DNA of 64,000 nt from an uncultured Gammaproteobacteria bacterium (lineage in GTDB: Bacteria; Pseudomonadota; Gammaproteobacteria; Steroidobacterales; Steroidobacteraceae), in contig CAWETY010000010.1 in the NCBI GenBank assembly GCA_963812125.1, forward strand, positions 272,747 through 336,746, given 5' to 3'. This document shows, one piece after another, positions 12,089 to 31,085 of this stretch. Below the pieces are notes generated by a model. It was not told the DNA's origin, made no database searches, and saw only the letters and a list, made by a program, of their open reading frames with translations. The first letter of the stretch is position 1. Each line of letters opens with the position of its first letter. Made by a program: the position numbers and the translations under genes.

Positions 12089-14063
12089 TTAGTCCAAATG
12101 GGCGCTGATCAAGTGAAAGGCGAACGAAAACACCGCTAGGTACAGCAGCGCGAGCGCCAGCACCCCGCTCCAAACCTTCGCCCAGACGCCTCTGCCGCTA
12201 CGCAAGGTCAGCCATGCATGCCAAATGGCCACCGCAACACCCGCGACGCATAACAGACCAATCAGTTGAAACAATCGAACCCATGGCGTGACGCCCACTT
12301 TGGAAGGAAAATCCGCTGTCAATGCCAGGAACCAGCACAGAATATAGACGACGCCCAGGACTGCGGCGAAACGCGTTAATCGATAAGCCCGCGCTTGGTG
12401 CCCCGTAAGCTGCAGAGTGCGCCCATAGCGGCGACGCAAGATCGCCGCTACGGGCCATGTCAGGGCCGTGAGGAGCATCACACCGACGGCCAATCCCAAC
12501 AATGGGACGTGCAAGCGGCTCGACCACAGATAGGGCACCTTTAGGTCCGCCATAAACGAAATCACCTGATCGGACCAAATGGACTGCACGTGTCCATCTT
12601 TGACTTTCGCCAGGAGATGCGCATCACCTCCAACTTCGCGCCAAACGAACGGTCCTATTTCGCGCCACGTTTGTGCCCGCGCGTTTTTCTCAAACGTCAG
12701 GGTGGCGGCAGTTTCGATCGTGCCATCGGCATTGGCCCGGACAAAAGGTTTCAGGGCCAGGAATCGCATGATCAGCGATAACCCTTCCTGATAATCGCCC
12801 CTCTGCTGGCGTGACCAATCATATTCTCCTGCCACTTGCTGCGCGTGCTCTTCGGCGGTGTGCGCGGTGGGCTCCTGAGGGAGCGGAAGGAGTGGGGAAG
12901 TAGCGATCCATGAACTGCTCAAACAGCTTGGTTCGCAGCATGAATGCGGCCGGAAAAATTCCTTTTACCTCCCCGTCGCTGTTGACGGCCGTGAACAGCC
13001 CGATGTTCTGGTCGAGCAACAATTTCATTTCCGCATGAAATCCCTCGCCGTCGCCCGAGTGACCAATGACTCGGTGCCCCTTGTAGTCGTCAAAAAAAAG
13101 CCCGAGCGCTATGGGTTGAGCGCCCGTCATCGGCGCGAAGACCGGCGCGTGCATGAGCTCGAGGGTTTGCGGCCGCAGCAATTGATAGTTCTCGTAACGG
13201 CCTTGCTGCAAATGCGCCAGCATGAACCGCGTCATATCATGAGCTGTCGTCGAGAGTCCACCTGCCGGCGCTTCAGTCGGCATCATTTCCTTTATGGTAT
13301 CCGGCGGATAAGGCTCGCCAGAGGAAGCCAACGGATAATTTTTGGCCGCAAACGGCTGCAACCTCTCGGGCAACGTCAAATGGAAGGTTGAATGATTCAT
13401 TCCCAGCGGCTCGAGAATGTGCCGCTCGATGTAAACCGAAATGGCCTCGCCGGAAACGCGTGCGACGATGTAACCTGCCAAATTCAATCCGTAATTCGAA
13501 TAGGCCGGCACTTCTCCCGGCGGATAAATCCGCTCCGGAATCATCAGCAAATGCTGTCGCAGCGTGAGCGGCGGCTTGTAACTCCTATAAGAAGTCTCCT
13601 CGAAGCCTGCCGTGTGCGTTAGTAAGTTACGCAGAGTAACCGGCCTGCCAAACGCCGGCGGGATTCCAAAATCCAAGTAAGCGTTGACATCTCGATCCAG
13701 GTCAAGCTTGCCCTGCTCCACGAGTTGCATGACCGCAGTCGCTGTGAAAGTCTTCGAGAGCGATGCCACGCTCGTCACAGTGCGCAACGCGTCCATCGGG
13801 GTTTTCTTGGAGACGTCGGCGTAGCCGTAGCCCTTCTCGAGCAGCACTTGGCCATCTTTCACGACAGACACCAACAACCCGGCGATGTCTCCGTCCTGCA
13901 GCGCGTAGGGAACCAAGCCATCGAGCCATGCTTCGAGATCCGCGCGATTCAGCTGCGGCGCGGAAGCTTCCGCTGATGATGGCGGCGGCGCCTGTGCGAC
14001 CGCAGCCGTCCCGAGAACAGCCAACGCACAGACGATTGTGATCGTTTTGAAAATATCGCGCAT
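12089..14063 (-). CDS. beta-lactamase-family serine hydrolase with C-terminal multi-TM domain; frame broken near 12885-12905
   Basis: Signal peptide MRDIFKTITIVCALAVLGTAAVAQA and SxxK motif 'SLSKTFTA'. ORFs 12819-14135 and 12089-12922 join as ...FMDRYFPTP|LLPLPQEPTAHTAEEHAQQ. The C-terminal part has four hydrophobic helices. Confidence 0.8.
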
Positions 14064-14179: not shown

Positions 14180-17100
14180 CTAGGTCGCCCCCGGCATCAT
14201 GGCCTTGCTCCTGCGCTTAGGACGGCTAAAGCGCAGGCGTCTCCTGACGCCGCGCATCGCGGTCAGTATTGCCAGCAGGCCGATTGAAGCCGGGTCGAGA
14301 TCCCCGCCCCCCGAATGACCTGAACTCGACGCCGATCCTGAACCGCCGCTAGAGCCGCTGCCCGATCCGCCTCCAGAACTGGCAGTGAAGTTCACGACGG
14401 TCTGCGCTTGTATATCATTTCCATAATTATTGGAGCACGTCATGGCGTATGTATGCTGTGTTCCCGACGACTCTTGGATGGACATGGAACCCGAGGTCGG
14501 CTGTGGCCCGGCGAAGGCGATACTTGCTCCGCTATCTTCCGATGCATTGCATTGGAACGAGCTGGTCGACGACCAAGTCAGCGTGAAAGCTGTCCCCAAC
14601 ACCGCGTTCTGCGTGCTCGCCACCAAGCTGACGGCCGGTTGCGCGTCCCAAAAGACCGTGACCTGCTGATTGGCGGAAAGCGGACCGTTTTGACAGGTGA
14701 GCCCATAGGAGACTGAGCCTGGCTGCGACTCGACAACGGTCATCGATCCATACCATGGAAGTGTTCCGCTCCAGCCATCGCCCGTCGCACTATTGGTTGC
14801 CGTGCAGGACGCAGCTTGCGGCGAATTCCAGTTCAAAGTCACCGACCGACCCACGACATTCCTGCTCAAGGAACTCCCGAACCCGATGTAGATCTGCGTT
14901 GCGGGGGCATACACCCAAACCGTGGTTTGCGCCTCCACGGCTGCGGTCCCGGTTCCGCACACCAGGGTCAAGGGAGCGTCGAATCCTAGCGGCTCCACTA
15001 CGCCAAGGGTTCCTTTCTGGGGCTGCGGGCCGCTCCACCCGTCGCCCGCGGTGCCACCGTAGCCGGTGCAGGGCCCCACCGCGGAATTCCAGGTCAGGTA
15101 CACAGGTTGGTTCTCGAACACCGAGATGGTACCGCCGGGTGTCAGCGTCAGAACGCTTCCGCCAACGTTGTTGAAAATAGCGGTCGCAGACGCACTGGCG
15201 GTGGCTCCGACACCGCAGGTGATGGAAAAATTATAAGTGCCGGCGCTGGCCTCGCTGATCAACGACGCGCTGGTATTGCCGGGGCCGCCGTAATACGGCC
15301 GCGGTCCATTCCATCCGTCGCCCGCACCTCCGCCACTGCCGATACAAGGCAGAACATTCGTCGACCAGGCCAGATATCCGCCCGACAGCATGAACTCACT
15401 ACCGTTTTCCGTGGTCAATGTGACTTGCGGATTGGGCTGTTGCTGCCATTGAATCGTTGTGCTGCTGGTAGTCTGCACGGACCCGCTGCCGCAGGTGAGC
15501 ACATAGGTGTACGTGCCTGCGATCCACTGGGGTTGCGTATCGGTCCCTTGCGGGGGAAATCCGCTGACATCGGTGCCGCCCACGGGTCCCGTATAGTCGA
15601 TCTCGCAGGGCTCTACGTTCGACGTCCAGGTCAACACGTTGGGAAGTTGCGGGACAGACAGATCAATCACGTAACTCGGCTGCGGCGCCATCAACGTGGC
15701 GCTAGGCGGCGCACCCGAAAAGGTATACGTAACCTCTGCGGTAGCTGCAACCGCCGGCGGCCCGCAAGAGATCTTGTAAACGTAGGTGCCTGCGGTCTGC
15801 TCCGTGAGATAGGCGCTGCCAAAATTTCCGCTCAAGGCTCCCGCCCAGTTGTCGCCGGGAGCGCCACCGGAAGCGGTGCAGTCCCCCGAACCGTGCCAGT
15901 TAAAGGCGATGCCCTGTCCGAGCCGCAAACCCGCTAGTGAGTACAACTGCATCGATGCGGTCGGCAAAACAAACGTCAAAGTGAGGGTTTGCGAAATGGC
16001 CTGGCTGCCAGTGCCGCAAGTCAATGTATAGTCGTAGGTTCCCGGCTGGTTCTCGGTGACATTGACTTGACCTGACGCCCCAAGCGAACCGCTCCAGCCA
16101 TCGCCTGGTGAGCCGCCCGTCGCGGTGCACGAAGGATTGTTGGATCTCCACACAAGAATGTTGGCGACACCGACGTAGAGTTGAAGATTCTGATCGTAGA
16201 AGGTCAAAGTCGGCGGCGCCACTGACCAAGTTACCTGCACCTGCGCCGCGCTAGAGCGCGCGCCGATCGTGCAAGTGACACCGTAGGTCACAACGGCCGG
16301 ATCGGATTCGGTGACTGCCAAATATTGGCCGGTGTTCAATACCCCCGTCCAGCCATCGCCGGGGACGCCACCCATTGCGGTACATACCGCGCCAGCGGTT
16401 GTATTGATCACAAGGTTGACCGTGGAACCGGTTTGAGCCGCCGTCTGCGAGACATACAAGGAGGTAGTCGGCGGAAAACCAGCTATGCCGGGCGATGTGG
16501 TGGCGCCCGTATTCGTGGGATCAAGCACCGAGGCCAGCGTGATCGAGCCGGTGCTGCTTGATGCGTCCGCCGTCGAAGTCCAGGTGCTCGCAAGTCGGCT
16601 GAACAGTGCAGACACGGTGTCTTTGCTGGGTGCCGGCGGCGGATTGACGGGACACTGACCCGCGACGGCGCGGCTCGCGGATCCGACGATTAAGTTGTCC
16701 TTGTTGAACAGTCCCGAACCCGAGGCGCCGTGATCGAGGCTGCCCAGCGAATTGACGACACCCCAATAGGTCGTGTTGTAACCTACAGACAGTTGAGCCG
16801 CGGTGAAATCTTCGGTGATGGCCGTCCCGCTGAACGTTGCGTATTGCTGGGAATTGCCGCCGGCATAGTCGACGGTGTAGCCATCGACCAGCGCCGCACC
16901 GCTCGCGTCCCAACCCGCGAAATAGGCATCCTGGAAATACGGTTGGGAATCCAACCGAATGAGCCATTGATCTTGCTGCTCGACCACGGTGGTCGCGCCA
17001 CCTTGAACTTGACTGGATTCATCAAAGATCGTCAGCAAATTCTGGCCGCAGGGCGTGATCGAATTCCAGTACACCTGAACGCTGGCCGCGGCCGCCGGAT

Positions 17101-17827
17101 CACCCCCGCCATCATCTCCGTTTTCGCAATGCCGTGCGGCGAGAACATAAGGAATGCCATCTTGAGGCACGTCGTTGAGCAGCGTCCCGCTGCAGATGAT
17201 TTTGTTGGAAATGACCAGGGCAACACTGGCGTAAGCCTGGCTTTGGGTGGCGGCACTTGCATCGCAGGCGTAGTTCTCCACACACGTGGAACTGGCGTTC
17301 GCGGCCAGCGACTTCAGCGCGCGGTAGTGCGGGTGATCCGCAACGCCGCTTGCCAAGCTCTTATAGCCGGCCTGAAAGGCCGCAATTTGCAACAGCGTCT
17401 GATGGCGCAGTTGCCTGGGTACGCTGATGTGAATGGCCAGTTGGTCGCCCTGCACGGGTCGGCTCCAGAAATCGGCTCGATGCAGGTCGCTGCCTCGAAC
17501 AGTGAATTGGCGTCCGCCTCCGACGACAGTCAATGTGCCTTTTTGCGGCAGCGACAAGCGATTGGCGTGAAAGCCCACACTGAGCGCCGTCGGGATTTTG
17601 ATCGCATAGTCCCAAACGACATTGTCTCCATCGCTCGACCATCTTCCGCTGGATTCCGAATCCAGGCGATGAAGAACATCCACCGCGAATTGCGTGCTGT
17701 GCCTCGCCGCTCGATCGATTAGCGGATCCAGATTGACGCGATAGGTCTCGACGGCGGCTGCAGCGCTATTCGCAAAACCGCAAAGCGCCATGAACAGGGA
17801 TGCCAAGAAAGGTAACCGAAACATCAT
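14180..17827 (-). CDS. large secreted S1 (lysyl-endopeptidase-like) serine protease with eight tandem two-Cys modules and a C-terminal sorting-like tail
   Basis: Signal peptide MMFRLPFLASLFMALCGFANSAAA. 'CSGTLLN', 'LAARHC' (His), 'YFAGWD', 'HGASGSGLF' (Ser) and 'VGSASRAVAGQC' align by eye with Achromobacter/Lysobacter protease I. Eight repeats carry C..GG.PGDGWSG...Y.LTC. Gly/Ser linker, then 'GGGDLDPASIGLLAILTAMRGVRRRLR'. Confidence 0.8.
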   Translation of the reverse strand: MMFRLPFLASLFMALCGFANSAAAAVETYRVNLDPLIDRAARHSTQFAVDVLHRLDSESSGRWSSDGDNVVWDYAIKIPTALSVGFHANRLSLPQKGTLTVVGGGRQFTVRGSDLHRADFWSRPVQGDQLAIHISVPRQLRHQTLLQIAAFQAGYKSLASGVADHPHYRALKSLAANASSTCVENYACDASAATQSQAYASVALVISNKIICSGTLLNDVPQDGIPYVLAARHCENGDDGGGDPAAAASVQVYWNSITPCGQNLLTIFDESSQVQGGATTVVEQQDQWLIRLDSQPYFQDAYFAGWDASGAALVDGYTVDYAGGNSQQYATFSGTAITEDFTAAQLSVGYNTTYWGVVNSLGSLDHGASGSGLFNKDNLIVGSASRAVAGQCPVNPPPAPSKDTVSALFSRLASTWTSTADASSSTGSITLASVLDPTNTGATTSPGIAGFPPTTSLYVSQTAAQTGSTVNLVINTTAGAVCTAMGGVPGDGWTGVLNTGQYLAVTESDPAVVTYGVTCTIGARSSAAQVQVTWSVAPPTLTFYDQNLQLYVGVANILVWRSNNPSCTATGGSPGDGWSGSLGASGQVNVTENQPGTYDYTLTCGTGSQAISQTLTLTFVLPTASMQLYSLAGLRLGQGIAFNWHGSGDCTASGGAPGDNWAGALSGNFGSAYLTEQTAGTYVYKISCGPPAVAATAEVTYTFSGAPPSATLMAPQPSYVIDLSVPQLPNVLTWTSNVEPCEIDYTGPVGGTDVSGFPPQGTDTQPQWIAGTYTYVLTCGSGSVQTTSSTTIQWQQQPNPQVTLTTENGSEFMLSGGYLAWSTNVLPCIGSGGGAGDGWNGPRPYYGGPGNTSASLISEASAGTYNFSITCGVGATASASATAIFNNVGGSVLTLTPGGTISVFENQPVYLTWNSAVGPCTGYGGTAGDGWSGPQPQKGTLGVVEPLGFDAPLTLVCGTGTAAVEAQTTVWVYAPATQIYIGFGSSLSRNVVGRSVTLNWNSPQAASCTATNSATGDGWSGTLPWYGSMTVVESQPGSVSYGLTCQNGPLSANQQVTVFWDAQPAVSLVASTQNAVLGTAFTLTWSSTSSFQCNASEDSGASIAFAGPQPTSGSMSIQESSGTQHTYAMTCSNNYGNDIQAQTVVNFTASSGGGSGSGSSGGSGSASSSGHSGGGDLDPASIGLLAILTAMRGVRRRLRFSRPKRRSKAMMPGAT

Positions 17828-18178
17828 CCGTGAAACTCCCTTGTTCTATCCAGATCTAGTTGTTTGTTCGGGCGCTAGAATCATAAACCCATAGCCGCAA
17901 CCTGGTTTGAGGATTTAGGAATTCAAAACTGCTTTCCCGCCGCCTCAAGTGATGCTCTAGCCCTGGCGGCTTTCATTGCTGCCAACGGCGCCGGCCCATG
18001 GCCACCGCTCCGCATTGGGCAGAGCCGGTTATGTTAGATCAGCGCTGTGGACGGAATTTCTCGAAGAATTGGCGCGGCCTCGGACTGAGCAACTGGGGCA
18101 ACGCGCGGACTCAGGCGACGCGGCTAAAGATGGCGTCGTCGATTGGCTCGTTGACACCTATGGCAAAAACCAACGCAC

Positions 18179-18397
18179 TTAGGTTCGACGAACGGAGACA
18201 CGACGACGCCCCGCGCTCGGGCGCTCCTCGGCGGCTGTCCACGGCTTGCCGGTGCGAAGCTCTATGTAGTCTCGCATCAAGCGTCGCACGACCTGCGAAG
18301 GTGTCAGGTCCTCTTGTGCACACAGGCGCTCGAACAGTTCCTTCTTGCGTGGGTCGACCAAAATGGTAAGCCGGGCGGTGCGATCTTCAGCAGTCAA
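18179..18397 (-). CDS. ribbon-helix-helix (CopG/Arc-type) DNA-binding protein
   Basis: 72 aa, TTG start. 'ARLTILVDPRKKELFERLCAQEDLTPSQVVRRLMRDYI' fits a beta-strand/helix/helix RHH pattern. Divergent from the hyf-like operon. Confidence 0.55.
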   Translation of the reverse strand: MTAEDRTARLTILVDPRKKELFERLCAQEDLTPSQVVRRLMRDYIELRTGKPWTAAEERPSAGRRRVSVRRT

Positions 18398-18413
18398 ATG
18401 GGACTCACATTAG

Positions 18414-18443
18414 GTGACATGTCAATACGTATAACATTATAAT
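18414..18443 (+). promoter_or_regulatory. sigma70-like promoter upstream of the hyf/ehr-like operon, overlapped by a 10-bp palindrome
   Basis: GTGACA (18414-18419), 18-nt spacer, TATAAT (18438-18443). Perfect palindrome TGACATGTCA at 18415-18424. AT-rich intergenic region, with ATG at 18526. Confidence 0.35.
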
Positions 18444-18525
18444 AGAAATTACATGACCGCAAATGGCAGGATCCGGTTTATCGACGTGGTAGCAGCCATT
18501 TCACGACCATGAGAACCGGCGCCTG

Positions 18526-20535
18526 ATGAATCTTGGTTCCACCTCGCCGTTAGCGCTCTCTGTACTGTTGCTTGTGGCATGGTGCTTGGTTGGGGTCGCC
18601 GGGATGCTGCGGCCCTTGAGTCTCGCTTTGGTGGGCCGGACGCTGTTCCCGCTGGGCGCCGTTGTCGGTGCCGCGCTGGCAGTCGTTGCGGCGACAAGCC
18701 TTGGCCACGCCACCGAACAGCTCGTATTGCCGATCGGGCTGCCGGACTTGCCCGTTCACTTGCGCCTCGATGGACTTTCGGGCGTGTTCTTGGTGTTGCT
18801 GGGCGGTGCCTCTGCCGGCATTTCGATTTTTGCGGCTGGCTACTTCAGGCGGGGAGAAGGCACGGCGCCCGGCTTGCTCTGCCTGCAATATCACTTGTTT
18901 CTCGCGAGCATGGGCTTTGTATTGCTCGCCGATGATGCATATGCATTCATGTTGGCATGGGAAACGATGGCACTGTCGTCGTATTTCCTGGTCACCACCC
19001 AACATCGCATTGCAGAAATTCGCAGAGCCGGGTTTCTCTACCTGCTGATGGCCCACTTGGGTGCGATCGCAATTCTCTTGAGCTTCGGCATCCTTCAGGG
19101 CGGCAGCTGGCATTTCACGTTCGACGCGATGCGAAGTGCACACCTGAGTGCAAATTGGGCGACGCTTGCATTCTGTCTTGCGCTGCTTGGATTTGGAGCC
19201 AAGGCAGGCCTCGTGCCCCTGCATGTATGGCTGCCGGAAGCACACCCGGCTGCGCCTTCTCCGGTTTCGGCGCTGATGAGCGGCATCATGCTCGAGACGG
19301 CGTTGTATGGGTTGATTCGGGTCAGTTTTGATCTCTTGGGTCAGCCGCCCCTATGGTATTGGGGATTGCTGCCGTTGACTCTCGGACTCTTTAGCGCCTT
19401 GTACGGCGTCGTATTCGCAGCCGCTCAAACTGACATGAAGCGTCTGCTCGCCTACTCCTCGATTGAAAACATTGGGATCATGTTTACCGGCCTGGGATTG
19501 GCGATAGTGTTCGCGGGCGTGGGTATGCGTGCCGCGGCGGCGCTTACATTGATTGCAGTCATGTACCAGGCGCTCAATCATGCATTCATGAAAAGCCTGC
19601 TATTTCTCGGTACGGGTGCGGTGTTGCACGCAACCGGGGAACGCAATCTAGGGCGCCTGGGGGGCCTGATCCATCGCATGCCCTGGGTCGCGTGGCTGAC
19701 GCTCATCGGCGCGCTGGCCATTGCTGGATTGCCTCCCTTGAATGGATTCGTGTCTGAATGGTTGCTCCTCCAATCCTTCCTGTTCTCGTACAAGGTGCCG
19801 CACGCCTTCATCAACATGCTGCTGCCTCTGGGCGCGGCGCTGCTCGCGCTCGCTGCGGCACTCGCGGGCTATGTCATGGTCAAATTCTTTGGCGTGATCT
19901 TTCTCGGTCAGCCGCGGGAACCTACTCTGCAACAGGCTCACGACGCTGGATTTGCCGAGCGCCTCGGGCTCGCGTGGCTTGCGTTCGGCTGCGTGCTGCT
20001 CGGATTCTTTCCGACCACCGTCATTTCATACTTCAGCATCGTCACTCAGCAACTCGGTTTGGGTGAACTGCCGTTGAGCAATGCGCCCTGGTGGCTACTG
20101 GTGCCTATTCCGGAACGAGAGTCCTCTTACGCACCTCTGGTATTTTTTGCGGTGATTTTAGTTGTCGTGGCGTTGGCCGTTGTCAATGTGCGCATCTTCT
20201 ATCATCGGCGCGTGCGCAAAGGCGCAGCTTGGGACTGTGGCTTCGGGGCGCTCACGAGCCGCATGCAAGATACGGCGGAAGGCTTCGGTCAGCCGATTCG
20301 CCATTTATTCCAACCCCTGTTCTTTCTCATTCGCGAACTGCCGGGCCCTTTCGACACAAAACCCAAGTATCGCTTGGAAATTGGTGATCGCATTTGGCGC
20401 GCTCTGTATGAGCCCTTGGGTCCGCTCGTCCGGCGGGTCGCAGATAAAGTCGCTTGGCTGCAGCAAGGGCGCATCGCGACTTACTTGCTCTACAGTTTCG
20501 TTACACTCGTCGTCTTGCTGGCGCTGATGCTATGA
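18526..20535 (+). CDS. hyfB: HyfB/HycC-like (NuoL-type antiporter-like) membrane subunit
   Basis: 669 aa, polytopic. 'GAKAGLVPLHVWLPEAHPAAPSPVSALMSG' and 'KRLLAYSSIENIGIM' are typical of the NuoL/HyfB family. Confidence 0.88.
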   Translation: MNLGSTSPLALSVLLLVAWCLVGVAGMLRPLSLALVGRTLFPLGAVVGAALAVVAATSLGHATEQLVLPIGLPDLPVHLRLDGLSGVFLVLLGGASAGISIFAAGYFRRGEGTAPGLLCLQYHLFLASMGFVLLADDAYAFMLAWETMALSSYFLVTTQHRIAEIRRAGFLYLLMAHLGAIAILLSFGILQGGSWHFTFDAMRSAHLSANWATLAFCLALLGFGAKAGLVPLHVWLPEAHPAAPSPVSALMSGIMLETALYGLIRVSFDLLGQPPLWYWGLLPLTLGLFSALYGVVFAAAQTDMKRLLAYSSIENIGIMFTGLGLAIVFAGVGMRAAAALTLIAVMYQALNHAFMKSLLFLGTGAVLHATGERNLGRLGGLIHRMPWVAWLTLIGALAIAGLPPLNGFVSEWLLLQSFLFSYKVPHAFINMLLPLGAALLALAAALAGYVMVKFFGVIFLGQPREPTLQQAHDAGFAERLGLAWLAFGCVLLGFFPTTVISYFSIVTQQLGLGELPLSNAPWWLLVPIPERESSYAPLVFFAVILVVVALAVVNVRIFYHRRVRKGAAWDCGFGALTSRMQDTAEGFGQPIRHLFQPLFFLIRELPGPFDTKPKYRLEIGDRIWRALYEPLGPLVRRVADKVAWLQQGRIATYLLYSFVTLVVLLALML

Positions 20536-21479
20536 AGATATTTGACTGGGCGGTGCAAGTGATGGGGATCGCCTTGGCGCTGGCCGCCGCGCCTGTGTTT
20601 CTCGGATGGGTGAATCAGTGCCGAGCGTGGCTGCAGAATAGGTCTGCACCGAGCATCCTGCAGCCGTATCGTGGCATCCGCAAGTTATTCCATAAGGATG
20701 CGGTGATAGCGCAGAACGCTTCGCAACTATTCCGGCTCGCGCCCTACGTGGTCTTTGGCGCGATGGTGACGGCCGCAGCCGTGATTCCTTCGATTGCAAC
20801 GCGCTTGCCCATTACGCGAGCCGCGGATGCGATCGCGTTGGTTGGGCTTCTTGCAACCGCGCGCGTGTTCCTGTCCTTGGCGGCAATGGACATCGGGACC
20901 CCCTTCGGCACGCTCGGTGCACGCAGAGAAATGATGATCGGATTTCTCGCGGAGCCCGCACTGTTGGTGGTCATCTTGGTCGTTTCCCTGACCTGCGCCA
21001 CCACGGCATTGCCGATCATAGCCGAACGCCTCTCGGCGCAGGCCTTCGCACTCAATCCAAGTCTCGCCTTTACCGCGGTCGCCTTCACCATGGTGCTCCT
21101 GGCCGAAAATGCACGTATCCCGGTCGACAACCCCGCGACGCATCTTGAGTTGACCATGATTCACGAAGCGCTGCTGCTGGAGTATTCCGCGCGTCACCTG
21201 GCGCTCATGGAATGGGCCGCGGCGCTGAAGTTGTTCAACTATGCGTGCATCGGTTTCGCGGTATTCATTCCCTGGGGCATAGCGACAAGCGATGCACCGC
21301 TGGGATTGGCACTGTCGGTCGCATTGCTGGGTGCAAAGCTCATTGTCGCCGGCGCTGCATTGGCATTTATCGAGACGCTTTCGGCGAAACTGCGCGTGTT
21401 TCGCGCACCAGAGTTTCTGGCAACGGCTTTTCTGTTTGCAGTGCTCGGATTGCTGGTGCGGTTGTTGCTGGGGGCATGA
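20532..21479 (+). CDS. hyfC: HyfC/HycD-like (NuoH-type) membrane subunit
   Basis: ATGA overlap with the upstream stop. Polytopic; 'ENARIPVDNPATHLELTMIHEALLLEYS' is characteristic of formate hydrogenlyase subunit 4 / NuoH relatives. Confidence 0.85.
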   Translation: MKIFDWAVQVMGIALALAAAPVFLGWVNQCRAWLQNRSAPSILQPYRGIRKLFHKDAVIAQNASQLFRLAPYVVFGAMVTAAAVIPSIATRLPITRAADAIALVGLLATARVFLSLAAMDIGTPFGTLGARREMMIGFLAEPALLVVILVVSLTCATTALPIIAERLSAQAFALNPSLAFTAVAFTMVLLAENARIPVDNPATHLELTMIHEALLLEYSARHLALMEWAAALKLFNYACIGFAVFIPWGIATSDAPLGLALSVALLGAKLIVAGAALAFIETLSAKLRVFRAPEFLATAFLFAVLGLLVRLLLGA

Positions 21480-22150
21480 ATATGAATGCGCTGTCGTGGG
21501 ACCTTCAATTGCTGAACACCCTGGCGGCACTATTGCTGCTGCTGTCATTCGCCATGCTGTCGCAGCGACGCATCGTCGCCCTGGTCAATCTGCTCGCGCT
21601 GCAGGGGGCACTATTGTTTCTCGCGACCTTGCTGCTTGCCTGGCGAACGAGCGATTTCAACTTGTATTTGTCCGCGGGACTGACGCTTGGACTTAAGGTG
21701 ATCTTCCTGCCATGGCTATTGCATCGTCTCATCCGTCGCCTCGGGGTGTACTGGGACACCGAACCGCTGCTCAACATCACCGCAACCATGCTGGTGGGCG
21801 TACTGGTGGTCATCTTTTCTTTCGGGCTGGCCCAACCGATTTCGGCGCTCGCGAGCACGGCCACGCGCAATTCCATCGGCATCGCCGTGGCGGTGATTCT
21901 CATTGCGTTCCTCACCATGATCACGCGTCGAAAAGCGATGTCGCAGGTGATTGGATTCCTATCGATGGAGAACGGGCTGTTCTTCGGCGCGATGAGCGCC
22001 ACCTACGGCATGCCGATGGTTGTTGAGCTCGGAGTTGCGCTCGACGTTTTAGTGGCGATGTTGGTTCTGGGCGTATTTTTCTTCCAGATTCGGGAACAAT
22101 TCGACAGTCTCGACCTGAAGAATTTTGAAACTCTGAAGGAGGATCAATAA
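21476..22150 (+). CDS. hyfE: HyfE-like (NuoK-related) membrane subunit
   Basis: ATGA overlap with the upstream stop. 224 aa, hydrophobic; 'KAMSQVIGFLSMENGLFFGA' resembles hydrogenase-4 component E. Confidence 0.8.
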   Translation: MNMNALSWDLQLLNTLAALLLLLSFAMLSQRRIVALVNLLALQGALLFLATLLLAWRTSDFNLYLSAGLTLGLKVIFLPWLLHRLIRRLGVYWDTEPLLNITATMLVGVLVVIFSFGLAQPISALASTATRNSIGIAVAVILIAFLTMITRRKAMSQVIGFLSMENGLFFGAMSATYGMPMVVELGVALDVLVAMLVLGVFFFQIREQFDSLDLKNFETLKEDQ

Positions 22151-22151
22151 G

Positions 22152-23609
22152 GTGGAGTTCATCGTTCTTCTAGGCACTCCGCTCATGGGCGCCCTGACCT
22201 TAAGCATTTTAGGGGGCCGGCGCTGGGCACCCGAAGCCAATGCGATCTTCTCATTGATTACGTTCTTCGCCGCATGTGCGCTGACGGCAAGGGTCGTGGC
22301 ACATGGCAATTTATCGGTCGGACACGAGCAATTCTTCATCGATGCCTTTAATGTCTTTCTGGTGACGCTGACTGCATTCGTCGGCCTGACCACTTCATTG
22401 TTCTCGCGCCCCTATATGCGCATTGAGGCGGAGCACGGTCGGGTAACGGCTGGTCAGCTACGCCTGTACCACAGCATGTACCAGATGTTCATCGCAACCA
22501 TGCTGGTTGCTCTCACGACCAATAACATGGGACTCATGTGGGTGGCGATGGAGGCTGCAACCCTATCGACCGTGCTGCTGGTGACACTGTATCGGACCCC
22601 CGCGAGCCTCGAGGCCGGTTGGAAGTATTTTATTCTCTGCGGCGTCGGGATTTCCCAGGCGCTGTTCGGCACCATCCTGATGTACTTTGCGGCCGAGAAG
22701 GTCTTGGGCTCCGAGGGCGTCAGTGCGTTGCTGTGGACGCATCTTAATTCCGTGAAAGCTCAACTCGAGCCTTCGGTACTGGGGCTTGCATTCGTTTTCC
22801 TGCTCGTCGGCTATGGGACCAAGGTCGGCCTTGCACCACTGCACAATTGGTTGCCGGATGCCCACGCCGAAGGCCCGACTCCTATTTCCGCGGTTTTGTC
22901 AGGACTGCTGCTCAATGTGGCGATGTACGCCGTCGTGCGCTGCAAGGTGCTGGTCGAGGGCTCGCTGAAATCGGCCTTGCCGGGCAGGATGTTGATGGGT
23001 TTTGGCTTGCTGTCGGTGGTGCTCGCGGCGTTTTTCCTGTGGCGACAACGCGATGTAAAGCGTTTATTCGCCTATTCCTCGATCGAACATATGGGGATCG
23101 TTGCCTTTGCGTTCGGAATGGGCGGCCCCGTGGCCAACTTCGCCGCGCTGTTGCATATGACGGTGCATTCACTGACCAAGTCGTCCATTTTCTTTGCCGT
23201 GGGACACGCCACGCAGAAAGCCGGCTCACAACTCATGGACAACATTCGCGGGCTCATCACCTTGAGTCCCACGGTTGGCTGGGGATTAATGATGGGCAGC
23301 CTCGCCATTCTCGGCACCCCGCCATTCGGCGTATTTGCGAGTGAATTTCTTATTCTGACGACGGCCATGAAACAGCAACCCTGGGCGACACCTATATTGC
23401 TGTTGGCGCTCGGCGTGGCCTTCGCGGCAATCTTTGGCCGTGTGCAGTCGATGGTCTTTGGAGATACCACAGCCAAACGTTTGCCGCATCCACCCGCGCT
23501 CGTACCCGTGTTCGTCCACTTGGGTTTGGTGCTGGTGCTGGGGTTTTTCATTCCGCCTTATCTGGCTGACTGGTATCGGGCTGCTGCGCGCCTGATCGGT
23601 GGAGAATGA
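22152..23609 (+). CDS. hyfF: HyfF-like (NuoM/N-type antiporter-like) membrane subunit
   Basis: GTG start 1 nt after the upstream stop. 'GTKVGLAPLHNWLPDAHAEGPTPISAVLSG', 'KRLFAYSSIEHMG'. Confidence 0.88.
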   Translation: MEFIVLLGTPLMGALTLSILGGRRWAPEANAIFSLITFFAACALTARVVAHGNLSVGHEQFFIDAFNVFLVTLTAFVGLTTSLFSRPYMRIEAEHGRVTAGQLRLYHSMYQMFIATMLVALTTNNMGLMWVAMEAATLSTVLLVTLYRTPASLEAGWKYFILCGVGISQALFGTILMYFAAEKVLGSEGVSALLWTHLNSVKAQLEPSVLGLAFVFLLVGYGTKVGLAPLHNWLPDAHAEGPTPISAVLSGLLLNVAMYAVVRCKVLVEGSLKSALPGRMLMGFGLLSVVLAAFFLWRQRDVKRLFAYSSIEHMGIVAFAFGMGGPVANFAALLHMTVHSLTKSSIFFAVGHATQKAGSQLMDNIRGLITLSPTVGWGLMMGSLAILGTPPFGVFASEFLILTTAMKQQPWATPILLLALGVAFAAIFGRVQSMVFGDTTAKRLPHPPALVPVFVHLGLVLVLGFFIPPYLADWYRAAARLIGGE

Positions 23610-23610
23610 G

Positions 23611-25173
23611 ATGGCTCTGCAACGATGGTTCCAGCAGGCGACCGAGGACTCCGAAACTAACGGAGGGATGATCTCGGGCGCACCAAGAGTTCTTGGCCTG
23701 ACAGTTTCGAGCGACGCTTGGCAGCAGGCCGCCGAGCACGTGGCAACCGGAGGGGGTCGATTGCAGTCTCTCTGGGCAAGTCGCGATCGCAATGGCCATG
23801 ACTGGGTCCGAGTCGCGTATACGGCTGCTCAGGGCGTGCTTGTGCTGAGTTTGCCGTTACCTGATGGGGAAAGCCGTTACCCTGGGATTCAGCAATGGTT
23901 TCCGAGTGCCAGCCGCATGCAGCGCGCCGTGGCGGATCTGTCCGGACTGCGCTCGACGGATCCGGATATGCGCCCGTGGTTGCGTCATGCGGCTTGGCCC
24001 GAGAGCTTTCATCCGCTAGTCGATACCCGCGCGCCGCCGCTCCCCTCGATGCCGGTGATCGACAGGTACGCTTTCATTGCGGTGGAAGGGGACGGTGTGC
24101 ATGAAATTCCGGTCGGGCCCGTTCATGCGGGCATCATCGAACCCGGTCACTTCCGGTTTTCGGTGGTCGGCGAGAAAGTGCTTCGGCTCGAGGAGCGCTT
24201 GGGCTATGTCCACAAGGGCATAGAACGGCGCTTCATTGAATTCCCGCTGCTGGACGGCCACCGACTGGCGGCCCGCATCTCAGGCGACTCTGCCGTTGCT
24301 TTTTCGTGGGCCTATTGCCAGGCGCTCGAAGGCATGGCCGCAGCGCACTTGCCAGATCGAGCCGTACACTTGAGGGCCATCGCGCTAGAATTGGAGCGCC
24401 TGGCCAATCACTTGGGCGATCTTGGCGCGATTGCGAACGATGCCGGCTTTTCCTTCGGGCTCAGCCAGTTCTCGCGGCTCAAAGAGCAGCTGCTGCGCGC
24501 AACCGAGGAAGCGCTTGGACAGCGATACCTCATGGATTTCGTTGTGCCCGGCGGCACGCGCGTGGACCTGTCATCCGCCGGTGTGCGCTCGCTTGATTGA
24601 CTCGATCGTATCGGTTGCTCCGGAGGTGAAAGCACTGAGTGCAATCTATGATGATCACGCCGGTTTGCGCGACCGGTTCGTAGGCGCGGGCGTCGTCGCA
24701 CCGACTCTCGCCGCGCAGTTAGGCCTGACCGGCCTGGCAGGACGCGCGAGCGGACAAGCCTTTGACCTGCGCTGCGATCTGCCCTGCGACCCGTACACGC
24801 ACTTGGCCCAAAAAAGATCGTGCATACGGAAGGCGATGTGGCGGCGCGCGTGGCCGTGCGCTTCGATGAAGTGACCGAATCGGTGCGTCTCCTGCAGCAG
24901 CTCCTGCGGGAACTGCCCGCGGGGCCGCATCAAGGGAGAATTTCAGTACCGGATGAAGGAGCACAAGGTGTCGGAATGATCGAAGGCTGGCGCGGCCCCG
25001 TATTTCTCGCACTGGAGGCAGGCCCGGATGGAATGATCAGACGATGTCACCCGCAAGACCCATCGTGGCAGAACTGGCCGGTGATTGAGCACGCCATCAT
25101 CGACAACATCGTGCCGGATTTTCCGCTGATCAATAAATCCTTCAACTTGTCCTATAGCGGCCACGATTTATAG
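23611..25173 (+). CDS. HycE/HyfG-like large subunit (NuoC+NuoD fusion) lacking the [NiFe] cysteine ligands; two frame breaks (about 24585-24600 and the A6 run 24810-24815)
   Basis: 'GPVHAGIIEPGHFRFSVVGEKVLRLEERLGYVHKGIER' is typical of group-4 large subunits. Three ORFs (23599-24600, 24422-24874, 24820-25173) join as ...LSSAGV|LIDSIVSV... and ...YTHLA|KKIVHTEGDVAARV... The L1 motif reads RISGDSAVAFS and the C-terminus reads NLSYSGHDL*. GGAGAA lies before ATG 23611. Confidence 0.85.
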
Positions 25174-25175
25174 CC

Positions 25176-25722
25176 ATGCTGAAAACGCTTGGGCAAAATC
25201 TGCCGCATCGGAATCATCACCGAGCCTGCTCCACCGAGTGACGAGTCACTGCGTATCCTCGACGCGCTGCAGTCCCGGATTCTCGAAGTCCTCGGCCGTG
25301 CACTGTGCATTCGAGCAATCGATGCCGGGTCGTGCAACGGCTGCGAGTTGGAGATTCACGCGCTCAACAATCCTCTTTACAATATCGAAGGCCTTGGCAT
25401 TCGGTTTGTGGCAAGTCCGCGGCACGCCGACCTATTGTTGGTGACGGGACCCGTGGCCAAAAATATGGAAGTGGCGCTGCGCCGCACCTACGATGCGACG
25501 CCGGATCCGAAACTCGTGGTTGCAATCGGCGATTGCGGTTGCACCGGTGGAATATTCGGCGAGAGCTATGCGACGTGCGGTCGCGTCTCCACGGTGATCC
25601 CGGTCGATGTGGCGGTGCCCGGGTGCCCGCCGAGCCCTCGACAAATACTCAGCGGTATTTTGACGGCGATTACCCAAGCGGCACCCGAAACTTTGAATCG
25701 GCGTCAAAGTGTGGGCTTGTAA
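25176..25722 (+). CDS. HycG/HyfI-like (NuoB-type) Fe-S small subunit
   Basis: 'GSCNGCELEIHAL', 'GDCGCTGGIF' and 'PGCPPSP' are the conserved [4Fe-4S] ligand motifs. The track ORF starts at TTG 25189. ATG 25176 (MLKTL..) lies 2 nt after the upstream stop but in another frame, so either TTG is the start or a further 1-nt indel lies near 25180-25192. Confidence 0.85.
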
Positions 25723-26806: not shown

Positions 26807-27289
26807 ATGCGCGTGCTGAAGACTCAACTACGCCAACTCCAGAAGCTCCTTCGACGCCGGGGATCGAGTCCTCAGGATGCGGAGGACCTGGTCCAAGAGG
26901 CAGTCGTTCGATTATTCGCCTACACGCGCAAAGTAGGTGAAGTGCGAAACACGGAGGCATTCTTAACCCGCACCGCCATGAATCTGGCGGTGGACCTGCA
27001 CCGAAGTTCGCGCCTCGACCGCTTCGAGCCCGAGCCTGTCGAGGTCCTCGATTTATTGGACTTAGGACCGGCACCAGACGAGGTGTTGGCCGCCGAACAG
27101 CGCCTACTGCGCATGAAAGAGACCCTTGACCGGGTCAGTCGCCGAACGCGCGAGGTGTTCTTCATGCATCGACTACAAGGATTGAGTCACGCCGAAATTG
27201 CTCGGAGCCTGGGCGTCACGCCGAGTGCTGTTGAGAAGCACATTGCCAGCGCACTCACGACCCTGACCATCGAGCGACAACGCGAATGA
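26807..27289 (+). CDS. ECF (FecI-type) RNA polymerase sigma factor
   Basis: Region 2 'AEDLVQEAVVRLFAY...FLTRTAMNLAVDLHR' and region 4 'REVFFMHRLQGLSHAEIARSLGVTPSAVEKHIASAL'. Confidence 0.85.
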   Translation: MRVLKTQLRQLQKLLRRRGSSPQDAEDLVQEAVVRLFAYTRKVGEVRNTEAFLTRTAMNLAVDLHRSSRLDRFEPEPVEVLDLLDLGPAPDEVLAAEQRLLRMKETLDRVSRRTREVFFMHRLQGLSHAEIARSLGVTPSAVEKHIASALTTLTIERQRE

Positions 27290-28298
27290 ATGAAGCACCC
27301 GAACGAAACTCCGACTTAATCCCGCCCGAGTGCATTGCGGAAGCGGGCGTCTGGGTGGCACGCTTACACAGTGGCGAGCCAGACAGGATCGCCATGGCGG
27401 GCGTGAAGCGATGGCTTAAGGCGAACCCGATGAATGTCCGCGCGCTGGAGTTGTGCACGGAGATTTGGGAGGAATCCGCGAATCTGCGGCGTATCACGCC
27501 CTTCGAGAGTCAGGCGCCTGCCGCGCCGCGAAAACATCGTTTTCTGCCAATGGCGGCCGCCGCCGCGGCGCTTTTGGTTGTTGCGGGCAATGATTCTTTG
27601 GCTTGCTCCGGCGGCTGACCTAACCACGGATGTCGGGGAACAAAGGCTGGTCACGCTACAAGATGGCACGCACGTATTCCTAAACACCGCCACCCGTATC
27701 GCCGTCGATTTCGATGCCCACGCCAGGTGGGTGGAACTGAAATCAGGCGAAGCGCTGTTTGATGTAGCCAAAAAGCCGACATGGCCTTTCATTGTCAAAG
27801 CCGGGGATCGCCAGATCAAGGCACTTGGTACTTCTTTCGTCGTCAGACGCGACGCGACGCAGACTTCGGTGACCTTGGTCGAAGGAACCGTATCGGTCAG
27901 CACGGATGGGCCATCCCGCAACCGAGGTGATGGGCGCACCCGCCGCCCCGCGGGTCTTTACGCTGAAGCCAGGACAAAAGTTGACCTTCTTGGGAGCGCA
28001 AGCCCGACTTGACATGACACCGCTCGACAAAGCGGTCGCGTGGCGACGCGGAGAGATTATTTTCGACGATACCAACCTGTCCGACGCGGCGGCTGAATTG
28101 AATCGCTACAACAAGGACAAGCTCGTGGTCGAGCAGCCCAGCGCACAAGCGCTGCGGGTGACGGGGCTCTTTCAAACGGGCGATTCGCTGAGCTTCGCAC
28201 ACGCGGTGGCGCAAAGTTATGGACTGACGGTAGAAGAGCGAAAGGACGCGATTGTTCTGTCGGGGGCGCCCGTCCAACATTCCGCTTCCACTCCCTAG
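27286..28298 (+). CDS. FecR-family anti-sigma / transmembrane sensor; two frame breaks (about 27575-27590 and 27900-27945)
   Basis: ATGA overlap with the sigma gene. 'AEAGVWVARLHSGE' N-domain, TM 'MAAAAAALLVVAG', 'VTLQDGTHVFLNTATRIAV...ELKSGEALFDV...FIVKAGDRQIKALGTSFVV', C-terminal 'LSDAAAELNRYN'. Spread over three frames. Confidence 0.8.
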
Positions 28299-28428
28299 CG
28301 AATTCTTTTGCACGTGCTCGCGGGCGCTCCCCGCCGACTTTGGATGATGCAGGGCCCCATGGCTTTTGGGGTATCGCTGAGGTTTTTTCGCAGCTGCAAC
28401 GTCATCTCCTGATAAGGGGGAGATAAGC

Positions 28429-31085
28429 ATGCATAGTGGCATACGTTCGCTATTTGCTCGAGCAGTGCTGGGATGGCTGTTCCTGTCGTGTGCGGTCCAT
28501 GCCGACGGACAAGCTACCGTCAAATTCAATCTGCCGAGTCAATCGTTGGCCGAGTCGTTGCGCGCCGTGGCAAGCCAAACGCAAACCAATATTCTCTTCG
28601 ATCGCGTCTTGGTGCGCGGTTTGATGGCCCAGGCACTGGATGCGCAGCTGAACCTCGATCAGGCGATGCGCCGCTTGCTGGCTGGGACGGGACTCGCCTA
28701 CCGAAAGACAGACGAGAAGACCGTCGTTATTGTAGTGGCCGACAAGACGGGCGATCCTGCTACCACCCGCGACACCGCGAGCCCGAGCAGCCCGGCGCCG
28801 ACGCAGCATCTCGCATCCAGCGCCGGTTTGACTGCCGGCGGAAGCGACGCCGCGATCCTCCATGGCAAAAGACAGCGATGCCCAGGCTCGAAGAAATCAC
28901 CGTCACCGCTCGGCGTCGCGAAGAAAGCCTGTATGCAGTTCCCGTGGCCGTGACTGCATTGTCGCCCGGCGACCTCCGCGCTCGCGGCATCCAGACCGCG
29001 GAAGATCTGCAGAATTACGTGCCATCGCTCAATGTGTCGAGCAGTGTCACGCGCGATGATTACACCTTCTCGCTGCGTGGCATGGGACCCACCGGCGGCT
29101 CGGGACCCGGGGCCGTGTTGGCCGGCGGCGGCACCGGCGTCGTAACGTATTTCGCCGATGTACCGACCAGCGGCGCGGGACCAGGGCTTTTCTACGATCT
29201 TGAGAGTGTGCAGGTCGCAGCCGGCCCTCAAGGTACGCTCTTCGGAAAAAATACCACAGGCGGTGCTGTCTTGTTCGTGCCGAAGAAGCCAGTGAATGAC
29301 TTCGAGGGCTCCGTGGAATATGGAATGGGCGACTACAACATGAAAACGGCGACCGCGGTGGTGAATGTGCCCTTGGTCGATGACAAAGTGTTGCTGCGTG
29401 TCGCCGGCCAATTTCTCGATCGGGATGGATTCACCATCGACCGCGGTCCGTACTTCGCCGGCAAGGACTACGACAATCGAGCCTATTGGGCGCTTCGTGC
29501 CAGCCTGCTGCTGCGGCCCTTCGACAACGTGGAGAACACCACCATCTTCAGCGCGCTGCACAGCGAGGGGAATGGCGATGGGTTCGTCCTCACGGCCGTC
29601 AATCCGGCCGGAGCCTTCGGATCACTGCTGTCACCGATTCTGGCCGAGCAACAAGCGTCCGGCATCCGTTCCACGTCCCTCTCGGCAAATGAAATTGATC
29701 GACGCTACAACGACGGCATCATCAATACCACGCGCTGGTCCATCAGTGAGCAATGGCAATTCAAAAACATCTTCAGCTATCAGGTGCAGAAATGGCGTAA
29801 CAGCGAGGACGTCGACGGCACAAGCTTAGTGTTGGATGATCTCGTGCCGGTGGGTCAGGGGTGGCATACCCAGGTGGGGACCTACACCGAGGAGCCGCAG
29901 ATACAGGGGGCGGCGCTGGATGATCACTTGAAAATTACCGCCGGCGCTTACTATGAAGACGGCCACAACTTGGGACCCCAACCCTACCAGGTGCAAGTCG
30001 CACTCGGCAATTTTCTCATTAACCAGGTTGATCAAAGCAACGCGGAGCGAAGTCGAGGCCTGTATGCGCAGACCACATACGATTTCGGCGGACTTTATTC
30101 GAGCTTGGACGGGCTCAAGCTCACCACCGGATATCGATACACCTGGGACAATTATAGCTACGGCATTGCCAGCTTCAGTCCAAGCCTTGGTAACGCATGC
30201 CTCACATCGTCGGGTAGCTACCCTGAAAGCGATTGCGCATTCTCCGCATCCGGACAAAGCGGCGGCAGTTCTTGGACACTGGGGCTCGACTATCAACTAC
30301 CTGTCGCGCTGGTGTACTTAAGATCCGGGCGCGGCTACGTTCCCGGCGGCTTCAACCCCTCGTTCGGTTTCACATCGGGAGGCGTCAATACGCCGCAGTT
30401 CCGATTTGCACCGGAGTCCGTGATCGACGTCGAATTGGGCGTGAAGTCCGAGTTCGATATAGCGGGCGCTCCCGCGCAAGTCACCGCGGATATCTTTCAC
30501 TCTGACTACACCAACATTCAGCGCTATGTCTCCGAAGTGCTGCCCGGCGGCATTGCTTCGAATTTTACCGCCAATGCCTCGGAAGCGCAGATCGAGGGAT
30601 TTGAATTTCAAGGCAGCATCGCGCCCGTGACAGGGCTGACCCTCACCGCGACCTACTCCTACAATCATGGCAAGTACACCAAGATCGATCCGGCGGCGGC
30701 GCCCTCCCTCGTCGGCGTACCTTTTGCCTACTTGCCAGAAAATAAGGCGAGCCTCGGCGCGACCTACAAATTGCCGCTGGCGCAGACCGCCGGCGAGTAC
30801 TCGCTCGGGCTGTTCTACTCTTATCAGTCGCGCTTTTTTGATGCTCCGTCGGTCCAGCCGTTCGACTACATCGAAGGCTACGGACTTCTGAATGCGCGTC
30901 TGGACTGGAATCACATCTTTGAGACGACTTTAGACGCGTCGTTCTTCATGACCAATGTGACCGACAAGGTGTATCGCGTCGGTCAATACAATGACTTGGT
31001 GGCGAACGGCTATATCACCTCCTTTTACGGCGAGCCGCGGATGTGGGGTGTGCAATTGCGCTACCGTTTCGGCAAGGCTCCTTAG
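28429..31085 (+). CDS. TonB-dependent receptor/transducer with N-terminal STN signalling domain; two frame breaks between about 28855 and 28885
   Basis: Signal peptide, then STN domain 'FNLPSQSLAESLRAVASQTQTNILFD...LDQAMRRLLAGTGLAY'. Plug 'LEEITVTARRREESLYAVPVAVTAL', beta-barrel ending '...GVQLRYRF'. Frames run 28429 -> 28862 -> 28473. Confidence 0.9.

Follow-up and report, generated by a model that had tools for sequence, protein, structure and literature searches.

Complexes that are related to the group 4 [NiFe] hydrogenases but lack the residues that coordinate Ni and Fe have been given the name Ehr (energy-converting hydrogenase related), and no function has been assigned to them; the concept invoked in the original prediction for the DNA analysed here, which was made from its letters without database searches, agrees with this published definition (PMC6349859, PMC10284858, PMC6728331). 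Another hydrogenase-related complex, Mbx, has a non-H2 reaction (PMC6349859). A six-gene cluster has been published for Cupriavidus since at least 2010, when the genome paper of Cupriavidus metallidurans CH34 reported hyfBCEFGI as Rmet_4666-4671, along with a matching six-gene set in C. necator H16 (H16_A2196-A2201); the operon was deemed incomplete and its role in lithotrophy unlikely (PMC2864759). In Acidithiobacillus ferrooxidans, the catalytic subunit of hyfBCEFGI is a non-hydrogenase according to HydDB (PMC7735108). Our study describes a cluster of six tightly packed, co-directional genes at positions 18526-25722 of a 64-kb stretch of DNA from an uncultured, Steroidobacteraceae-like soil gammaproteobacterium (the window, to which all negative results given for it are limited). 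Our preferred reading, to which we assign a probability of roughly 55% as a whole, is that this locus encodes an Ehr-type redox-coupled ion-translocating complex and not a hydrogenase, that it is controlled by a regulator of the RHH_9 family, and that the single-base insertions and deletions (indels) interrupting two of its genes are assembly errors.

A Hyf-type cassette with a ligand-less large subunit

The large subunit, g5 in Table 1, matches both Complex1_30kDa and Complex1_49kDa in Pfam, and HycE is its closest match among solved structures (2e-49, phmmer against PDB sequences). In its alignment to the Escherichia coli proteins, on which phmmer and MAFFT agree, the RVCGICGFAHS of HycE and HyfG pairs with RISGDSAVAFS, so that the former L1 ligand positions are occupied by Ser224 and Ser227. 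At the other end, the DPCYSCTDR of HycE pairs with NLSYSGHDL followed by the stop codon. The changes at the four [NiFe] ligand positions are C>S, C>S, C>S and C>G, and the protein ends at the point where HycE is cleaved during maturation, whereas HycE and HyfG run on for another 32 aa. The original prediction had given exactly these substitutions and the missing C-terminal extension, and it had named a Cys at the L1 or L2 positions of a frame-corrected alignment as one result that would speak against it; the corrected alignment has none at either place. Since all four positions are non-Cys, the protein does not qualify as a Cys4-[NiFe] hydrogenase, and, judged by its sequence, it cannot hold a Cys4-ligated [NiFe] centre.

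The same judgement extends to the whole family. A motif scan of GTDB species representatives returned 554 loci with the signature, of which we analysed the best 80, and the ligand-less signature is common to these 80 loci, to Rhizobium and Variovorax, and to 73 full-length ligand-less cluster representatives at 50% identity, which bears out the expectation that no Ni-Fe centre is bound. The ending N-L-S-Y-S-G-H-D-L is invariant in the alignment of g5 with its relatives, and N-L-[SAT]-Y-S-G-H-D-L terminates the protein in 75 of the 80 loci. In five of the 80 loci and six of the 73 representatives, the first of the former ligand positions, and no other, still has a Cys (R-[IV]-C-G-D-S; for example P0015 and P0100), which may be a leftover or may serve as a functional thiol.

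It is important to consider what occupies the former metal site. Asp226 lies between the positions of the two lost L1 ligands; 71 of the 73 ligand-less representatives share it, against V, A or I in the sister sequences that still contain the Cys. The residues that transfer protons in HycE, whose roles were taken from the structure paper of formate hydrogenlyase (FHL; PMC9474812), are largely retained among the same 73 representatives: His172 (HycE H188, 72/73), Glu177 in the beta1-beta2 loop (E193, 70/73), His267 (H284, 68/73), Arg378 (R395, 72/73), Glu420 (E437, 71/73), Arg461 in the canopy (R478, 72/73) and Asp519 (D536, 73/73). In addition, Gly225 occupies the position of Tyr87 in Thermus Nqo4, as in hydrogenases.

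The small subunit, g6, matches Oxidored_q6 of Pfam (E = 7.5e-32). Its motifs GSCNGCE, GDCGCTGG and PGCPP, which the original prediction had read as intact, align to the Fe-S cysteines of HycG and HyfI, with all four Cys kept in the pattern expected of a proximal [4Fe-4S] small subunit (CxxC, C and C). The C-terminal extension of about 85 aa found in HycG and HyfI is absent from it.

The remaining four genes encode the membrane part. The translated open reading frames (ORFs) confirm the layout, ATGA overlaps and short gaps noted before, and the searches of Pfam and NCBIfam, together with tblastn, support the subunit families that had been proposed; E. coli K-12 proteins pair one-to-one with the window genes. 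The first gene scores 862 bits against NF005086, 'hydrogenase 4 subunit B' (cutoff 667), and the fourth 850 bits against NF005045, 'hydrogenase 4 subunit F' (cutoff 543), both exceeding their cutoffs. The second matches NADHdh of Pfam (E = 5e-30), and the third, which is matched by E. coli HyfE at E = 5e-12 in tblastn, falls under the cutoff of NF008556, 'hydrogenase 4 membrane subunit' (E = 1e-26). The solved-structure search covered three subunits, g1, g2 and g5, and in each case E. coli FHL-1 came first, with HycC (7z0s_C, E = 1e-59), HycD (7z0s_D, E = 9e-38) and HycE, followed by the membrane-bound hydrogenase (MBH) of Pyrococcus furiosus. The HyfB-type subunit retains Glu146 in transmembrane helix (TM) 5, the Lys of TM7 and TM12, and the ND3-loop Cys571, equivalent to Cys537 of HycC; the HyfF-type subunit retains the Lys motifs of TM7, TM8 and TM12.

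Ratios of nonsynonymous to synonymous substitution (dN/dS) between the corrected genes and their relatives lie between 0.03 and 0.14 for all six, and they indicate strong purifying selection on the entire cassette. The value is about 0.13 for the large subunit and within 0.03-0.08 for the five others (0.06 for g1, 0.05-0.07 for g2, 0.03-0.05 for g3 and 0.03 for g4).

Table 1. Features of the locus, in coordinates of the window.
Feature	Position	Strand	Description
RHH regulator gene	18179..18397	-	ribbon-helix-helix, divergent; 72 aa, TTG start; Pfam PF19839 RHH_9, E = 2.2e-23
Palindrome	18405..18417	.	TCAC-N5-GTGA; overlaps -35 hexamer; read from sequence
Promoter-like site	18414..18443	+	sigma-70-type, GTGACA-18 nt-TATAAT; 11/12 matches
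g1	18526..20535	+	HyfB/HycC/NuoL-type antiporter-like subunit; 669 aa, ND3-like C-terminal extension
g2	20532..21479	+	HyfC/HycD/NuoH-type membrane subunit; 315 aa; ATGA overlap with g1
g3	21476..22150	+	HyfE-type membrane subunit; 224 aa; ATGA overlap with g2
g4	22152..23609	+	HyfF/NuoM-N-type antiporter-like subunit; 485 aa, GTG start
g5	23611..25173	+	NuoC+NuoD-fusion large subunit, HycE/HyfG-like; 520 aa once two 1-nt indels are corrected
L1-equivalent motif	24274..24306	+	R-I-S-G-D-S-A-V-A-F-S; alignments to HycE/HyfG
Extra base	about 24592-24594 (within 24590..24600)	+	makes premature TGA; missing in 7/7 relatives
Missing base	about 24808 (within 24805..24812)	+	TTGGC-CC in window, GCGCC in relatives; frame restored
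L2-equivalent C-terminus	25144..25173	+	N-L-S-Y-S-G-H-D-L-stop; alignments to HycE/HyfG
g6	25176..25722	+	NuoB/HycG/HyfI-like small subunit; 181 aa once the extra base is removed
Extra base	about 25189-25191	+	detaches g6 ATG; unique compared with seven relatives

Relatives, regulator and surroundings of the cassette

Homologues of the corrected large subunit number in the thousands; the best 120 are full-length proteins, 519-522 aa long for the most part and 74-92% identical, and the 92%-identical ones are full-length proteins of 520-521 aa known from metagenomes only. Nearly all of the best 80 loci belong to Steroidobacteraceae or to unclassified Gammaproteobacteria among metagenome-assembled genomes (MAGs). 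A search with P0001 against 1.84 billion cluster representatives gave 6539 matches at E <= 1e-3 and, at the stricter E <= 1e-30, 1015. Among the best 150 representatives at 50% identity, about 130 are ligand-less at the positions covered and 18 carry all four Cys; these 18 read RxCGxC ... [EN]LCY[SA]CxDR and likewise have no C-terminal extension. The nearest Cys-containing relatives (P0169, P0172, P0185, P0191, P0192 and others) are 33-41% identical, end at DR, and may represent a true-hydrogenase sister group of the Ehr clade. In a neighbour-joining tree of 97 sequences, which is rough and was built without support values or the HydDB reference set, the ligand-less sequences form one clade beside a grade of Cys-containing (CCCC) sequences, which suggests that the ligands were lost once, anciently, and that a radiation followed.

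The six-gene set is also present in cultured genera, as identified by a tblastn search of plasmids and chromids. Large-subunit identity is 57% in Variovorax and in C. metallidurans CH34 and C. necator, 53-55% in Paraburkholderia, 51-52% in Burkholderia, and 47% in plasmid pRL11 of Rhizobium johnstonii 3841, where the operon is RL_RS31230-31255. The large subunits of Rhizobium and Variovorax read R[TI]SGD[ST]TVAYA ... N[CL]SYSGHDL. The original prediction had expected automatic annotation to name such a locus hydrogenase-4 or formate hydrogenlyase, and this largely holds: in Rhizobium and Variovorax, the annotation pipeline of NCBI (PGAP) names them, in gene order, hydrogenase 4 subunit B, NuoH, hydrogenase-4 component E or 'formate hydrogenlyase', hydrogenase 4 subunit F, NuoC and NuoB family. 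The large subunit escapes the expected label at NCBI, where its homologues are called 'NADH-quinone oxidoreductase subunit C', while at JGI they are 'Ni,Fe-hydrogenase III large subunit'.

The best DNA match among the GTDB loci is 88.9%, so the genome of the window is not one of theirs. DNA similarity to relatives is restricted to 18174-25713, that is, to the six genes and the small divergent gene upstream of them, and the flanks are not syntenic. This divergent gene encodes the ribbon-helix-helix (RHH) regulator, and in at least 55 of the 80 related loci a homologue of the RHH_9 family lies at the corresponding place and on the corresponding strand. The promoter that had been proposed between it and the cassette matches the sigma-70 consensus closely (Table 1). 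Across 15 aligned loci whose overall identity is only about 70%, the sequence CTCACATTA(A/G)GTGACA is near-invariant, as are both promoter hexamers and the palindrome, which is a candidate operator or may partly serve the RHH gene as its ribosome-binding site. Expression of the cassette probably proceeds from this predicted promoter under RHH_9 control. No Rfam match was found in the operon leader. In Rhizobium johnstonii 3841, a co-directional helix-turn-helix (HTH) gene of 98 aa (L081:3533-3829) overlaps the start of hyfB, and there is no divergent RHH gene at that locus; this order presumably resembles the arrangement of Mycobacterium tuberculosis in which Rv0081 comes first.

No accessory hydrogenase gene accompanies the cassette in the regions that we searched. 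As the original prediction had it, the window contains neither a ferredoxin subunit nor formate dehydrogenase, hyp genes or the HycI protease: tblastn with E. coli queries detected no homologues of HypA-F, HycI, HycH, HycB/HyfA, HycF/HyfH, HydN, HyfJ, HyfR, FocB or FdhF there. When every ORF up to 10 kb to either side of the 80 loci was clustered, no widely conserved neighbour other than the RHH_9 gene emerged, and no conserved ferredoxin, formate dehydrogenase or hyp gene was present among them. A spermidine-synthase-like gene (PGAP 'fused MFS/spermidine synthase') stands beside the Ehr cassette in 25 of the 80 loci (for example, L002:15184-16074) and flanks the Variovorax cassette on both sides (L082:2747-3481 and 11684-12442); it is absent from the window.

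Other genes of the window were considered and placed outside the system, as they are not found beside the cluster in relatives: a beta-lactamase-family gene, a repeat protein, and a cell-surface signalling set. The latter, made up of an ECF sigma factor, a FecR-type anti-sigma factor and a TonB-dependent receptor with an STN domain (26807-31085, + strand), lies directly downstream of the cluster and is not syntenic in relatives. The repeat protein is a 1215-aa ORF (14180-17827, - strand) with a signal peptide and no Pfam match at E <= 0.01; its N-terminal region looks trypsin-like, and behind it come some eight units repeated in tandem, roughly 85-90 aa in length, that each contain a pair of Cys and the motif GG-x-x-GDGW-x-G. 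A Gly/Ser-rich linker leads to its hydrophobic, Arg-rich C-terminal tail. Between about 36.5 and 40.5 kb the window has short, low-scoring ORFs only, and its sole Rfam match is a single tRNA gene at 40580-40652 (- strand).

Frame breaks and competing explanations

Two genes of the cassette are interrupted as sequenced. The original prediction had treated 23611-25173 as one coding region in need of frameshift correction; it is not a single ORF as sequenced, since the frame from 23611 meets a TGA at 24598-24600, and beyond it the conserved reading follows the +1 frame and switches back near 24808, but the correction does yield a complete protein. The ATG at 25176, which had been taken as the start of the small-subunit gene, does not share the frame of the conserved ORF, whose open stretch begins only at TTG 25189, and this earlier assignment fails for the sequence as it stands. 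A nucleotide alignment with seven relatives attributes these interruptions to three single-base indels unique to the window (Table 1), and the corrected products are collinear with those of the relatives.

We consider that these indels are most likely assembly errors and not decay. Frameshifts were gauged by splits in Pfam domains, as plots of codon usage and of GC content at third codon positions (GC3) were too noisy at about 58-60% GC, and genes unrelated to the cassette proved to be broken likewise: FecR extends over three frames with its DUF4880, FecR and FecR_C domains (27286-28295), the TonB-dependent receptor has its STN domain in another frame than plug and barrel (28429-31085), and the HD domain of relA/spoT is split (49577-51656). 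The original prediction had not noticed how widely frames are disrupted in the window. Several breaks, including all three in g5 and g6, adjoin CTTG, a shared context that suggests a systematic assembly or base-calling error. The large-subunit ORF is also broken in four related loci from 'MFD' MAGs, which we take to be long-read assemblies. Because of these breaks elsewhere, the shared CTTG context, the four MFD loci and the strong purifying selection on the corrected genes, we read the indels, on strong but indirect grounds, as errors, and both subunits would therefore be functional in the organism. That the frameshifts are real, and that g5 and g6 are recent pseudogenes of a complex being lost in this organism, is by the same token very unlikely. 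The premature TGA, the conserved g6 ATG left out of frame, and the fact that the three indels lie outside long homopolymers would fit such a loss, but seven or more breaks spread over four unrelated genes of the 64 kb, relA/spoT included, would not; nor would the lack of any excess of amino-acid change, given the dN/dS of 0.13 and the stretch between the two g5 indels, which remains close to the sequence of relatives.

Selenocysteine insertion or a programmed frameshift at TGA 24598 was considered and rejected, as the codon results from a window-specific 1-nt insertion; it lies away from the ligand positions, so a selenocysteine reading has no basis. A related reading is a true [NiFe] hydrogenase of the Hyf or formate hydrogenlyase type, in which the TGA would perhaps encode selenocysteine or be bypassed by frameshifting. 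Automatic annotation does use such names, and group 4 hydrogenases that contain selenocysteine have been put forward in silico (PMC13582414). However, the four non-Cys ligand positions, the uninterrupted ORFs of the relatives, the lack of hyp, hycI, hycF and fdhF homologues in the window, and the non-hydrogenase classification of the A. ferrooxidans orthologue by HydDB (PMC7735108) leave this explanation effectively refuted.

An Ehr-type complex, as we propose it, would consist of six subunits: the antiporter-like HyfB and HyfF, the NuoH-like HyfC, HyfE, and a peripheral pair in which the NuoC-NuoD fusion is partnered by a NuoB-like protein with one [4Fe-4S] cluster. The redox state of this single cluster would be coupled to the movement of protons or other ions through the membrane subunits, by way of a former [NiFe] pocket that has lost its metal and kept the proton-relay residues of hydrogenases. 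Asp226, a conserved carboxylate gained in the pocket, would be a candidate protonatable site. Because the cassette has no ferredoxin subunit of the NuoI/HycF type, electron donor and acceptor would be encoded elsewhere, outside the cassette, and the divergently encoded RHH_9 regulator would control the conserved sigma-70-type promoter. Several points weigh against this proposal. The coupling of redox chemistry to ion movement is inferred from homology alone, and with one Fe-S cluster and no NuoI-like subunit, the entry and exit of electrons are hard to place. In 60 of the 73 ligand-less representatives, Asn replaces the canopy Asp (HycE D529), and the proton pathway could thus be changed in those members. 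An AlphaFold2 model of P0001, computed from a 24-sequence alignment, reached a mean predicted local distance difference test (pLDDT) score of 58.8, with values <50 in the pocket, and was not used. Finally, the hyfBCEFGI proteins of A. ferrooxidans were undetected under the conditions tested (PMC7735108).

In a rival reading, the peripheral arm would be vestigial or only regulatory and the complex would be an Mrp-like cation/proton antiporter, redox-independent or redox-gated, with the cluster serving for structure or sensing. HyfB and HyfF have their homologues in MrpA and MrpD, the catalytic site has lost every metal ligand, no electron-input subunit (NuoI/HycF, HycB) is encoded, and no conserved redox partner lies near the cassette in the 80 loci. 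We nevertheless regard this as doubtful: strong purifying selection acts on the peripheral subunits (dN/dS 0.08-0.13), and the Fe-S cysteines and the whole proton relay are kept across a deep clade, beyond what a purely structural need would require. Also unlikely is that the complex acts as a minimal ferredoxin (or flavodoxin):quinone oxidoreductase similar to complex I, with quinone bound in the remodelled pocket. The quinone site of complex I is built by homologues of NuoB, NuoD and NuoH, the hosts (Cupriavidus, Rhizobium, Burkholderia and Steroidobacteraceae) are aerobic or facultative quinone users, and quinone has been raised as a possible acceptor of Ehr complexes (PMC6349859). Against it stand the Gly at the Nqo4 Tyr87 position, the hydrogenase-type CxxC of the small subunit in place of the tandem-Cys N2 motif of complex I (PMC9474812), and the closer similarity of g1, g2 and g5 to FHL than to complex I. 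Within an Ehr-type complex, a more speculative and improbable idea is that the former pocket has become a new functional site, either a metal-free redox-Bohr 'proton-loading' centre working on one [4Fe-4S] cluster or a site for another cofactor or a small substrate. The near-invariant residues behind this idea are Ser-Gly-Asp-Ser/Thr, Ser-Tyr-Ser-Gly-x-Asp-Leu-COOH and the Glu/His/Arg relay; if true, this would be the complex I superfamily's simplest known redox-driven ion pump, and it would sit in genetically tractable aerobes such as C. necator H16 and R. johnstonii 3841.

Within the superfamily of complex I and membrane-bound hydrogenases, Ehr complexes form a widespread branch, and labels such as hydrogenase-4 or formate hydrogenlyase inflate the H2 metabolism inferred for soil metagenomes, with Steroidobacteraceae, Burkholderiales and Rhizobiales among the lineages affected. 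What our sequence comparisons appear to add is a single ligand-less clade, a retained proton relay, a clade-defining Asp, the lack of a NuoI/HycF-like subunit, and the RHH_9 gene with its conserved promoter. The Asp, the proton relay, the missing NuoI-like input subunit and the RHH regulator with its promoter provide experimental handles in the cultured hosts of orthologues.

Comparison with known systems

Compared with respiratory complex I (NuoA-N), the cassette shares the ancestry of NuoB, C, D, H and L/M/N, and its large subunit ends where NuoD does; unlike complex I, it has no NuoA, E, F, G, I or J, and it differs in the two cofactor-site features weighed above, the Gly at the Tyr87 position of Nqo4 and the CxxC of the small subunit. 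NCBIfam scores for NuoD and NuoH are far under their cutoffs, and scores are lower than to FHL; on these features the locus falls outside complex I. With Mrp antiporters, which are made up of MrpA-G without a NuoB/C/D/H module, only the MrpA/D-like domains are shared. MBH (6CFW) and MBS/Mbx (6U8Y) of P. furiosus combine NuoB/C/D/H modules with Mrp-type antiporter-like subunits, as the window does, but they have 13-14 subunits, including a NuoI-like ferredoxin subunit, and their large subunits are much more distant from g5 (MbhL 4.6e-32, MbsL 3.5e-19).

The E. coli hydrogenase-4/FHL-2 (HyfABCDEFGHIJR) and FHL-1 (HycBCDEFG, PDB 7Z0S) complexes resemble the window in the fused NuoC-NuoD protein and the CxxC-type small subunit, and the Glu of the beta1-beta2 loop, the canopy Arg and the His/Glu/Arg proton path are common to E. 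coli FHL and the window. The differences include the features that define a group 4 hydrogenase or a formate hydrogenlyase: the window lacks the [NiFe] Cys, the C-terminal extension with its HycI protease, the Hyp genes, and HyfA/HycB, HyfH/HycF, HyfD, HyfJ, HyfR, FocB and FdhF. The small subunit is shorter, and an Asp replaces the aliphatic residue between the L1 Cys. We take the Rv0081-Rv0087 locus of M. tuberculosis to have a matching subunit set in a different gene order and to be a member of the DosR regulon. Likened to the window by description only, this 'hyc' locus encodes an EHR complex in an operon with the small regulator Rv0081 (PMC6728331).

The features by which Ehr complexes are recognized are all found in the window: subunits like those of group 4 membrane hydrogenases, antiporter-like ones included, a large subunit without Ni/Fe ligands, and a position beside and outside the Cys-containing group 4 hydrogenases in our rough neighbour-joining tree. 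The closest counterparts are the hyfBCEFGI clusters of Cupriavidus, A. ferrooxidans and Rhizobium, which agree with the window in the six subunits, their order and the lack of accessory hydrogenase genes. They also share the large-subunit signature R-x-S-G-D-[ST] ... S-Y-S-G-H-D-L-COOH, at 47-57% identity in Variovorax, Cupriavidus, Paraburkholderia and Rhizobium. The window differs from them in its Steroidobacteraceae-like host, in the divergent RHH_9 gene, where Rhizobium has the co-directional HTH gene, and in the three frame-breaking indels. It therefore adds no new kind of complex: the locus is an Ehr complex of an already published kind, and its novelty is that of a Steroidobacteraceae-type member.

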